Assembly: GCF_029227855.1 (NCBI RefSeq)
Contig: NZ_CP074357.1
DNA length: 64,000 nt
DNA from: Escherichia coli
Lineage (GTDB): Bacteria; Pseudomonadota; Gammaproteobacteria; Enterobacterales; Enterobacteriaceae
Direction: 5' to 3' (one strand)
Shown piece after piece: positions 46,101 to 49,100 of the stretch. The number at the start of each line of letters is the position of its first letter. Position 1 is the first letter of the stretch. Position numbers: made by a program.

Positions 46101-49100
46101 GTGACTATCTGATTAGATACAGTTTCAGGTATAGCTTCGGCTATTATTTTTACGTTCATTTCATAATCAACACTATGGAAGCAAGCAAGAATTTGTGGCT
46201 TCGCGCTTTCTAAAATCTTTTCAAGAACAGAAAAAATCAGAGAGAACTCGTTTAAAATTCGCTTTTGTATAAGTCCATGTAGATGTTTTATGAAAGGAGA
46301 ACCGTGTTCAACAAGGCCTAGTATAAGATCCTTAGAGGCCAAATCTGAGCGGTAATAAACGTATTCTAGATTATCCCGGTTAAATCCTTTGAAAAGCAAA
46401 TCAGGCTGCTCTGAGACCAGTCGTAAATGAGTTGAAGCTATAGAAACTTCAAAACGAAAGTTCGCGAGATTTACAGGACCTGCTTTTAATGTAGCCGCTT
46501 CGGAAAAATAAATGAAAAGAGGATGCAAATCATCGTTACCACTGTAAAGATGGTCTGCACCCTTAAGATATTTCACCAAATGAGGTAGAAAAGATATTAC
46601 TGGAATATCAGCCACAAATCGAATATGCCGAAATGGTTTTGAATCCAAATATATATTTTCCACTACAGCGCCAACAAAACCCATTTTAACAAGAATAGAT
46701 TCAACTAACTTTTGTATAGCATTCATTTCAATACCCTCTTAATAGAGGGATTTCTCCCATAGGGAGAAATCCCTATGGGAGAAAATAATTTTAATTAATA
46801 ATTATAGCGAAGCGCATGTTCTTTTTCACTAAGATGGTTTTCATATTCCGACTTACCAGAACTTAAACACTCTTTGAAAAAGACCTTTGAAAAATTCTTC
46901 AAGTCACTTCGGTTATTAATTTCTTTGTCAGACATCAACTTAGCTGAGTGTGAGGTATCAACAGGCCCCAACCATCATTCATATTTAATATAAACACAAT
47001 TGGTTTGTGTATGTCCATTTAGAAATCGTTTTGCATTTCTAAGTATTTTTCTACAACCGTTAAGGTCTGAAAGTAAGATATCTGGAGCAATGAGCTCTTC
47101 CAGAATATGACCAGGTAAGCCTTTCCTAAAAAGCTCAACATCGTAACTACAATACCAGTCACGATAATTAAAAGCTTTAATAAGTCTTTCAGGTGTATCC
47201 AAAGATATCTTATTCAGGATTTTTAATGCAAAGCATACAGCATCTTTTAACAACTCGTGCACCTCAACATTGATAAATGAGAAAAACGAGCTTAATTCTT
47301 TCTCTAAGGAATTATACAACTTACCGTAAATATCCTGAGAAAAAAGATACTGCAATCTTTCTTTATTATAAGTGCAATTCGAAATTGAATAGACTTCTCC
47401 TCTTTCGATTTTGCACCCTTCCCTTAAAACTATAGGAAACCTCAAATGGTTAACAAAGAAAGAATGATTCTTTCTTTGCTTCAGAGCATCTAATTGAAAT
47501 TTCGTAATTTCCTCCAGATTTGCATCTTCAAAACCTGGAAAGGGAATATCACAGAAACAAGAACTATATGCTTTTGCTGATTCATACATAAACTCCAGTG
47601 AAACATCAGCATCAAAAGACATACCAGAGAACATGCCCTGCCCATTGTCTAAAAATGTAATGTTTTTAACCTGTATTTTTTTATGTTGAACAACCAAAAA
47701 GGCATTAATGATTTTTTCGATAATTTTCATGTGATCCTCTCTCAATAAAAAAAGGGATCACTCCCATATGGGGTGTGATCCCCACATGGGTATAATTTAA
47801 TTAAAAATCTGTAAGACCTAAATCTTTATTTCTACCACAAACTGTAGAAGATATAAGACGTTTTACTCGCTTTCGAGCACTTCGGCCTGACGTATCTTTC
47901 AAGTACATCGGTAATGACAATGATGAAATTTGATTACTTCGCTTATGATGGCAGACTATATAGCCCTGCCTCCACCCCGAACGCACAAACTCACGGATGC
48001 GGTTAATATATGCCGAAGCTTGAGATTTTGTACTTATCGATTCAGAACACTTTAAGTTCTGTTCGATAGAGTAAAGCTCAGCCGCCATGAATTTCACCTC
48101 ATACAGCTCATCGCCATAACTTATAGTTTTCAACAGCTCTTCCTTTTCCCGAATGAAAAATACTTGCTGCATTCCAAGGATCAGGTCATAGGCCTCTCGA
48201 AAGAGGTCGATAAGCTTATTACGAACATAAATCATAAACTCCTCAAAGTGCTGAAGCCAGAAATAAGCCGCATTACTTATTTGTGAATTGTGAGAACAAA
48301 CAAGCCCTTTAGCAAGCTCGACCTCTTCCTCCCGAAAAGTAAAGTTACTTTTCTTAAACCGACTTTGTTCAAAAATGCTTTGATGCATTTCTATCCATAC
48401 AGAAACAAAACCGAGGGATTCAAATTCTTCGTTTAACAAATGTAAACTTTCGAAGATTTTCTGAATTTCGATCCCGATGTCATATGACAGTGGACATTCT
48501 TTTATAGAATAAACATAACCGGGTAGGAAGTGAGATAAATGCTCAGTTCGCAAATATAAACTGAATTTAAGTTCTGTCAGTGGTTGTTTCAAAGATAACT
48601 TAGATGATTCGCTTATATTTACTGGTTCAACGCCATTTCTAATCAAAATAGCTTTTACCAGGTCCGTAGCTAACTTCATACAGCCTCCATTCGTTATTGA
48701 GGCCTCCCTGATGCAGGTTGGCCATCAGGGAAAATATGTAAATCAATTAGCAATCAATCAGACCGTTGCCATGACATTGTCAATGTATCTGACAAGGGAT
48801 GGGCGGTCGTCCTGTAAGGCAAAACGGCGAAGGTCATCAAGATTATACGCAGGAAGATAATCAGCGTAACCTCGAATACGAAGGTCCTCAACCACAACTT
48901 TTATATACTCAAATCGTCCAAGATTCCCTTTTAATGGGGGTTTTCCTGGACTAGACAGCATATCGTCTGCTTGCTCCCATGTGATTTCTTTAGCTTCACC
49001 ACTATGTAGATCAAGATGGACATATATGAATGACTTATAATCTCCACGGCAACGAAGATAATATTTCGGATAGAAATATTTGTCACAACGCAACAAACAC

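Follow-up and report, generated by a model that had tools for sequence, protein, structure and literature searches.

A conserved intercistronic RNA element that may throttle translation of a backbone gene in IncHI plasmids

The 64,000-nucleotide stretch of Escherichia coli contig NZ_CP074357.1 (assembly GCF_029227855.1) analyzed here, hereafter the window, is IncHI2 plasmid backbone, and more than 1,100 sequenced plasmids carry the segment at 99% identity or above. On its minus strand, within a long co-oriented operon downstream of trhI, a gene at 45806-46726 encodes a hypothetical protein of 306 amino acids, and the Shine-Dalgarno (SD) sequence of this gene forms one arm of the last helix of an intercistronic mRNA element of ~62 nt. 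Structure prediction and comparison among IncHI lineages suggest that the default fold of this element masks the SD and acts as a built-in translational throttle on the gene, as a cis-acting element in a polycistronic mRNA. We favor this explanation with reservations and weigh it below against four others.

Results

The minus-strand leader reads ...TCCCTATGGGAGAAA-T-CCCTCT-ATTA-AGAGGG-TATTGAA-ATG, and from the UAA that ends the upstream reading frame (46797-46795) the order of segments is UUAAAAUUAU, UUUCUCCCAUAGGGA, UUUC, UCCCUAUGGGAGAAA, U, CCCUCU, AUUA, AGAGGG, UAUUGAA, and AUG (46726). Helices A, B, and C can be drawn in this sequence (Table 1). Hairpin C pairs the SD with an upstream anti-SD through 6-nt arms that are 100% complementary and 4 nt apart, and both a reading of the sequence and a repeat search recovered this stem exactly as the original prediction had described it. 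That prediction had placed the SD immediately 5' of the ATG, which is correct as to their order and loose as to their distance, which is 7 nt. Helix A is a perfect palindrome of 15 bp with a 4-nt loop; a single base separates it from C, with which it is compatible. Helix B is a perfect palindrome of 13 bp with a 3-nt loop that shares 4 nt with the anti-SD and parts of both arms with A, and therefore B excludes both A and C. The SD stem had also been said to overlap a large palindrome, giving alternative folds. The overlap holds for B and not for the larger helix A, which coexists with C, and the alternative folds are borne out in that B would free the SD by pairing with the anti-SD.

When 131 nt of leader were folded with RNAfold, A together with C was both the minimum free energy (MFE) structure and the centroid, so that structure prediction agreed with the proposed SD stem. 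The fold reached -40.3 kcal/mol against -21.9 +/- 3 kcal/mol in shuffled sequences (z = -6.1), and none of 200 shuffles was as good. Hairpin C alone was worth -8.7 to -8.8 kcal/mol in this plasmid. The probability that the SD is unpaired was 0.000 in the leader and 0.018 for the 6-nt SD core in a 90-nt context; the latter value was among the lowest of 60 annotated plasmid genes, with 2 of 46 control genes lower still. Markov shuffles of the window contained no perfect hairpins with stems of 12 bp or more.

Protein searches and contig look-ups yielded homologues of the junction upstream of the gene starting at 46726 (the 46726 junction) in IncHI1A, IncHI1B, and six further lineages, whose proteins are 45-86% identical to those of the window, for a total of nine distinct sequences in about four clades. 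A protein-pattern scan of 100,044 species genomes found no relatives. All nine lineages fold as A (11-16 bp) plus C (5-8 bp) with the SD 7-8 nt from the AUG, and the probability of an unpaired SD was at most 0.024, so that sequestration of the SD in a stem, as originally proposed, extends to every lineage folded. Identity between clades in the element ranged from 59% to 73%, and the element was 66% identical between clades compared with 61% for the flanking 300 nt of coding sequence. An element that drifts about as fast as the coding sequence beside it yet keeps its fold lends support to selection for structure.

MAFFT and Infernal alignments left the IncHI2-type sequences out of register and showed no covariation, and the alignment columns were registered by hand to the structures and N-padded. 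In this alignment, 91.2% of cells in A plus C were paired, six pairs had changed on both sides, and the covariation score was 0.255 against 0.133 in shuffles, none of 500 of which reached it; sliding the partner by 1-3 columns as a control left at most 69% paired. At one position of A the pair is U-A, A-U, G·U, or G-C depending on the lineage, and the outer stem UUUCU:AGAAA becomes CCACU:AGUGG in the lineage labelled L010. Helix B was 95.2% paired, with four pairs changed on both sides and a score that was again reached by none of 500 shuffles. In C, one C-G pair has become U-A in lineage L012, where anti-SD and SD change together and the stem is UCCUCUU:AAGAGGA (7-8 bp); the sixth C pair is present only in IncHI2 and L012. 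Arm-swap chimeras between clades lost ~3 kcal/mol for A and for B. All bases between the GGG and CCC blocks of A, including its loop, are pyrimidines in every lineage and pair with a purine-rich segment in B. With few clades and hand-fitted alignments, the covariation statistics are supportive, not conclusive.

At 37 °C, the energies across the nine lineages were -18.5 to -26 kcal/mol for A, -18.5 to -22 kcal/mol for B, and -5.7 to -8.8 kcal/mol for C, and in every lineage A plus C was more stable than B, with a margin of 5-14 kcal/mol. As long as the SD has not been transcribed, the energies of A and B differ by no more than ~2 kcal/mol in seven of the nine. In null sequences in which only A and C were preserved, B reached -6 to -10 kcal/mol, and 0 or 1 of 300 such sequences attained the native value. 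The direct-path barrier was 22-28 kcal/mol from A (or A plus C) to B, and 14-19 kcal/mol from B to A plus C. Barriers of this height imply that the fold would be set at the birth of the RNA or by a factor, and A should form first because its arms are transcribed before the 3' arm of B. Between 15 and 42 °C, the probability of an unpaired SD stayed below 0.03 and the A/B balance kept its sign.

The 46726 junction does not stand alone. Strong hairpins follow the stop codon at almost all junctions of the operon, and the median leader MFE was -29.4 kcal/mol in the operon versus -15.3 kcal/mol for 47 other annotated genes of the plasmid (p = 3e-7), while median accessibility of the SD core was 0.19 versus 0.41 for other plasmid genes (p = 0.018). 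The arrangement of a hairpin followed by an SD hairpin also precedes at least six other operon genes, and at the junctions before the genes starting at 48679, 47730, 45739, and 44629 a post-stop hairpin and an SD hairpin are found in all lineages. Covariation in the SD hairpins of j12 and j13 falls on the two pairs closest to the AUG, outside the SD core (C-G/U-A/U·G and A-U/G·U/U-A), and j12 has a terminator-like helix, UGCUUCCC-GGU-GGGAAGCA, followed by a U-rich tail.

Table 1. Positions of the features of the 46726 junction and of its sister junctions in the window.
Feature	Position	Strand	Sequence or remark
Gene with masked SD	45806..46726	-	306-aa hypothetical protein, IncHI backbone
Stop codon TAA ending upstream reading frame	46795..46797	-	10 nt before helix A
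Helix A, 5' arm	46770..46784	-	UUUCUCCCAUAGGGA; found by repeat search, in MFE structure, covariation
Helix A, 3' arm	46751..46765	-	UCCCUAUGGGAGAAA; loop UUUC 46766-46769
Helix B, 5' arm	46762..46774	-	AGGGAUUUCUCCC; inner part of A 5' arm, A loop, and start of A 3' arm
Helix B, 3' arm	46746..46758	-	GGGAGAAAUCCCU; last 4 nt (46746-46749) belong to anti-SD
Anti-SD (hairpin C, 5' arm)	46744..46749	-	CCCUCU
SD (hairpin C, 3' arm)	46734..46739	-	AGAGGG; loop AUUA 46740-46743
Start codon ATG	46724..46726	-	spacer UAUUGAA 46727-46733, predicted unpaired
j5, before VWA gene	53196..53267	-	A-type hairpin; GGGUAC...GUACCC + U6; SD-region pairing GAGUACC/GGUAUUC
j9	48680..48757	-	hairpin UCCCUGAUG...CAUCAGGGA; SD hairpin GGCCUC/GGAGGCU
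j10, before gene starting 47730	47725..47802	-	A-type hairpin; B-type GGGAUCAC...GUGAUCCC + U7; SD hairpin GUGAUCC/GGAUCAC
j12	45740..45805	-	post-stop hairpin CCCAUCCGGGAA/UUCCCGGUGGG; SD hairpin CACUUCCU/GAGGUAGUG
j13	44624..44700	-	post-stop hairpin; SD hairpin CACUUCCUC/GAGGUAGUG

The clearest case of the three-helix design is j10. Its SD hairpin has 7 bp and ends at the ATG (47730), and its B-type helix, at -16 to -19.5 kcal/mol and with a conserved U-rich tract, has the shape of an intrinsic terminator and about the stability of the competing A-type helix. Three segments of j10 (in the A loop, in the middle strand, and after the SD) vary together. They read AUCAC / GUGAU / AUCAC in the IncHI2 type (the window and L008) and AUUAC / GUAAU / AUUAC in the IncHI1 type (L006, L007, L011, and L016), and two mixed states bridged by G·U pairs occur, AUUAU / GUGAU / AUCAC in L010 and AUUAC / GUGAU / AUUAC in L012. 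The combination of hairpin and U-tract that marks an intrinsic terminator is present at j10, j5, and j12 and is missing from the 46726 junction, where B and A are followed by CUAUUAAG and UCCCUCUA and eight of the nine lineages have no U-tract, with U6 in L010 only. The 46726 junction is a version of the j10 module that has lost its U-tract in all lineages but L010.

The strand on which these structures act was assessed over 46 junction modules. In 34 of them the sense strand gives the better fold (mean -29.1 versus -26.6 kcal/mol for antisense; Wilcoxon p = 2.5e-6), and the sense strand holds 71 G·U pairs compared with 36 in antisense, or 13 versus 2 at the 46726 junction itself. Given this G·U asymmetry and sense advantage, the two strands are not equal, as the symmetry of a duplex operator would have them. 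Searched against 218 kb, a covariance model of the 46726 junction had 25 extra matches, every one of them in sense orientation and with its end exactly 5 nt into the downstream gene (the DUF3150 gene, the VWA gene, and four genes for proteins of ~300 amino acids). The evidence favors a structure that acts in mRNA rather than as a palindrome in duplex DNA.

The 12-mer GGGAGAAATCCC of helix B occurs again as an inverted repeat at 56881-56909 (minus strand), in the junction before the gene at 55891-56868. An alternative fold of this second site combines a GGGA-GAAA-UCCC mini-hairpin with CAUGGGA...CUCC-UUUU-GGAG...CCCAUG and would hide both the SD and the AUG; the consensus fold of three lineages prefers it. 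The identity of the 12-mer between the two sites is lost in IncHI1. A repeat of the REP, BIME, or MITE type is not indicated, as the 12-mer is found at only two sites in the 64 kb, which is not above chance. It also occurs at 1343 places in 1335 plasmid records, or about one per record. Neither a dispersed nor a tandem repeat was found.

The operon contains hypothetical genes, an AAA ATPase, a DUF3150 protein, a VWA protein, a toprim protein, a run of hypothetical proteins of ~300 amino acids, and a Tus-like protein, in this order. The five genes of the ~300-amino-acid run (43673-48679, minus strand) fall into two groups by profile comparison. By hhalign, the gene starting at 48679 matches that starting at 47730 with 82.5% probability and the latter matches the gene starting at 46726 with 95.8%, as distant relatives, whereas 48679 and 46726 have no direct match (8.8%). 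The genes starting at 45739 and 44629 are a clear paralogous pair that is not linked to this chain. As such, a description of the run as five paralogous genes was dropped, since hhalign backs only the chain and the pair. None of the five proteins, including the 306-amino-acid protein, had a match in Pfam, NCBIfam, PADLOC, or PDB, and their relatives were met only in IncHI-type contigs.

The frame upstream of the junction (within 46795-47730, minus strand) contains an in-frame TGA at 46975-46977, at a codon that is TGG (Trp) in L008 and likewise encodes Trp in IncHI1 (L006). This TGG-to-TGA change sits 180 nt before the junction, and the upstream open reading frame (ORF) now ends there. The 59 codons past the TGA are in frame and conserved, and the annotation gives a truncated coding sequence of 756 bp. 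It looks like a recent nonsense mutation, or a read-through UGA, in a widespread IncHI2 lineage.

Three further structures were seen in the window. A canonical intrinsic terminator, GGCACGG-UUU-CCGUGCC followed by U8, lies at 43617-43633 (minus strand), ~40 nt past the last gene of the ~300-amino-acid run (43673-44629), and probably either ends the transcription unit or attenuates it strongly. The toprim gene is followed by a 270-nt gap with an AT-rich palindrome (49471-49540) whose 23-nt arms, GGTTATCTTATCAATA...TATTGATAAGATAACC, are 87% complementary. The palindrome directly adjoins a G+C-rich hairpin, CCCCCGC-AAAAA-GCGGGGG, that resembles a terminator in both directions, and it could be a protein-binding or origin-like site. 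A perfect 15-bp hairpin with a 7-nt loop, ACAGAAAGGTGCTGC-TTTCCGG-GCAGCACCTTTCTGT, occurs at 29480-29516, and it and helix A are the only perfect 15-bp stems in the window.

Several triggers and other readings of the 46726 junction were examined and set aside. No leader ORF is conserved across the nine lineages, and leader-peptide attenuation was rejected because the IncHI2 ORF is not conserved, its start being absent in L008, L010, and L012, and because IncHI1 has only a 6-codon UUG ORF. The 10-codon ORF found in IncHI2 only, MGEIPLLRGY (46731-46761, minus strand; AUG-GGA-GAA-AUC-CCU-CUA-UUA-AGA-GGG-UAU-UGA), starts inside the 3' arm of A, spans the SD hairpin, stops 1 nt before the AUG, and is probably fortuitous. 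Read-through of the upstream UAA into an ATGA overlap was dropped because the frame works in IncHI2 only. The distance from stop codon to helix A is 6-22 nt at the 46726 junction, 8-10 nt at j10, 5-13 nt at j12, ~31 nt at j9, and ~115 nt at j13. Footprint data place a terminating ribosome over ~9-10 nt past the stop codon, so that at 6-22 nt it would reach no further than the outer pairs of A. A relay in which the terminating ribosome melts A is unlikely in view of this variable distance and of the upstream nonsense codon 180 nt earlier.

An RNA thermometer was excluded by the temperature behavior described above. A promoter-like GTGAAA-17-TATAAT (46829-46801) was discarded because its transcript would keep all of A and its hexamer is coding and not conserved, and an antisense terminator, flagged by a scan at 46751-46784 on the plus strand, was discarded because its U-rich tail is not conserved in IncHI1. 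A CsrA/RsmA site is not indicated, as the SD (AGAGGG) lacks GGA and the remaining GGA motifs are within stems whichever fold forms. Rfam gave no match at the gathering score, only chance matches far below threshold, and a literature search found no description of the element or of the control of the operon.

Discussion

We propose that during transcription A would zip first, leaving the anti-SD free to pair with the SD, and that the mRNA would come to rest in A plus C, where a stem of -6 to -9 kcal/mol hides the SD. The relation between the stability of a hairpin at the ribosome-binding site (RBS) and translation initiation is established, and on that relation translation of the 306-amino-acid protein should be low. 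Such a throttle would probably be part of keeping the backbone operon at low cost. Helix B may correspond to the helix that, as a stem with a U-tract, has the shape of a terminator at the sister junctions. Helix A would also keep B from forming, and B could unmask the SD only if the formation of A were prevented; no agent that does so was found.

Several points count against such a throttle. Its effect on translation is derived from folding energies, and 30S subunits can open stems of the strength of helix C. Four of the six pairs in C are invariant, the arm-swap chimeras showed no loss for C, and the conservation of C could follow from the SD together with the needs of A and B instead of from selection on C. 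The unedited Infernal alignment gave no covariation signal, registration of the columns by hand leans towards the structures, and with nine sequences in about four clades the shuffle statistics overstate independence. Moreover, the conservation and covariation of B are hard to explain if B never forms, which favors a real switch.

That switch would be a regulated, bistable riboregulator in which A plus C is the OFF state with the SD masked, B is the ON state with the anti-SD sequestered, and something blocks the 5' arm of A; candidate triggers are an RNA-binding protein, a small RNA, nuclease trimming, a closely coupled ribosome, or a co-transcriptional event. We hold it as a tentative alternative. 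It would account for a B helix that is far more stable than the null in all nine lineages (-18.5 to -22 versus -6 to -10 kcal/mol), that has compensatory changes of its own, that nearly equals A in seven of nine lineages until the SD is transcribed, and that would be long-lived once formed, with 14-19 kcal/mol to climb before reaching A plus C. It would also account for the all-pyrimidine stretch, A loop included, that finds its purine-rich partner in B in every lineage. Against it, no trigger was found, no leader ORF is conserved (the 10-codon ORF is confined to IncHI2), the stop-to-A distance varies from 6-22 nt here to 5 to ~115 nt at the sister junctions, and the upstream gene of this plasmid stops at a nonsense codon 180 nt earlier. 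A would form first and be locked in, and the fold is insensitive to temperature; the modelled energetics argue against spontaneous switching. The original prediction held that translation could be gated by which structure forms. This idea gains from the conservation of a mutually exclusive B and loses from the missing trigger and the 5-14 kcal/mol by which A plus C is favored, and gating stays hypothetical as long as it lacks a trigger; the data are matched no less well by a constitutive throttle.

It is also conceivable, though in our judgment unlikely, that the hairpins serve mRNA processing, stability, or termination, possibly as a barrier to 3' exonucleases, a 5' stabilizer once RNase E has cut the AU-rich spacer, a target for RNase III, or a terminator that has decayed, and that pairing of the SD with the C-rich arm is a by-product. 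A strong hairpin after almost every stop codon of the operon, the several hairpins with U-runs that are flagged as terminator-like, the little independent covariation of C at the 46726 junction, and the tendency of a C-rich 3' arm beside a G-rich SD to pair would all agree with this. However, the sister SD hairpins co-vary outside the SD core and next to the AUG, which points to selection on the pairing, anti-SD and SD changed together in L012 with growth of the stem to 7-8 bp, and in eight of nine lineages no U-tract follows A or B. An element acting as DNA (a protein operator, a cruciform, or a hairpin for single-stranded DNA transfer, such as a priming site for the toprim protein encoded nearby) is suggested by the perfect palindromes A and B in IncHI2, by the recurrence of the 12-mer as an inverted repeat at 56881-56909, and by the promoter-like sequence just upstream. 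We regard it as very unlikely: helices kept by G·U pairs (13 versus 2) would have A·C mismatches on the other strand, the covariance model matches the sense strand only and in register with start codons, the identity of the 12-mer is lost in IncHI1, and the TATAAT is coding and not conserved. For helix A alone, a single-stranded DNA role with the polarity of the mRNA is possible. Chance complementarity without function is scarcely credible. Finding one 6-bp stem beside an SD is no rarity and, in one sequence, would be borderline evidence, and 2 of 46 control genes are equally masked, but a fold kept in nine lineages at ~66% identity with compensatory changes, a z of -6.1, and the absence of stems of 12 bp or more from shuffles speak against it.

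A broader proposal, which we consider rather doubtful, is that at least seven junctions downstream of trhI are kinetically trapped three-helix switches, each with an antiterminator-like A, a terminator-like B whose arm is the anti-SD, and an SD helix C, so that one factor or event would set both read-through and translation for each cistron. Entry into a recipient cell, a plasmid RNA-binding protein, or nuclease trimming could possibly play this part.

In Salmonella, E. coli, Enterobacter, and Klebsiella, plasmids of the IncHI1, IncHI2, and related types are major vehicles of multidrug resistance, and the operon described here is conserved across IncHI subgroups, with most of its genes lacking a known function. 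A conserved, co-varying RNA element before most of these genes would mean that their expression is shaped after transcription. The anti-SD, the A loop, and the 5' arm of A offer easily mutated handles on the roles of the genes and their cost to the host, and the element is a candidate for a new family of cis-regulatory RNAs. If helix B is functional, it would be an unusual case in which, at many junctions of a single operon, the arm of a terminator also serves as an anti-SD.

Among known systems, the translational attenuation leaders of ermC and cat are similar in their overlapping, mutually exclusive pairings, with the SD in the 3'-most helix and a middle helix that frees it. The IncHI element differs in being intercistronic, in having a default state that is very strongly favored, and in having no leader peptide or stall site, as no conserved ORF overlaps the 5' arm of A. 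The mRNAs of the hok family are likewise plasmid mRNAs in which exclusive, long-lived folds separated by a high barrier set the availability of the SD. In the IncHI element, no antisense RNA, 5'-3' pairing, or toxin gene was recognized, and the trigger of hok, 3' processing, is not evident.

Translational coupling by RNA unfolding, as in rpmI-rplT (with a spacing of +52 nt), MS2 coat-lysis, and f1 genes VII-IX (PMC12548453), resembles the present case in that a downstream cistron is silenced by structure at its RBS, and the stop-to-start distance of 68-77 nt is of the order of that in rpmI-rplT. In those systems the inhibitory partner is either part of the upstream ORF or close enough for the ribosome translating that ORF to reach it (PMC12548453), whereas the IncHI anti-SD and helix A are wholly intergenic, beginning 6-22 nt past the stop codon, and the upstream ORF of this plasmid ends 180 nt earlier. 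The fourU and ROSE thermometers also pair the SD in a short hairpin upstream of an accessible AUG, and IncHI transfer is temperature-dependent (PMC7366339). The helix found here is perfect and G-C-rich, with an anti-SD (CCCUCU) that is neither U-rich nor UYGCU and without destabilizing mismatches.

The sister junctions resemble the trp and pyrBI attenuators and intrinsic terminators, since at j10, j5, and j12 a B-type helix with a U-tract competes with an upstream A-type helix of similar energy. Unlike those attenuators, the 46726 junction has no U-tract after B in eight of the nine lineages and no evident sensing part, and the 3' arm of its terminator-type helix doubles as the anti-SD.

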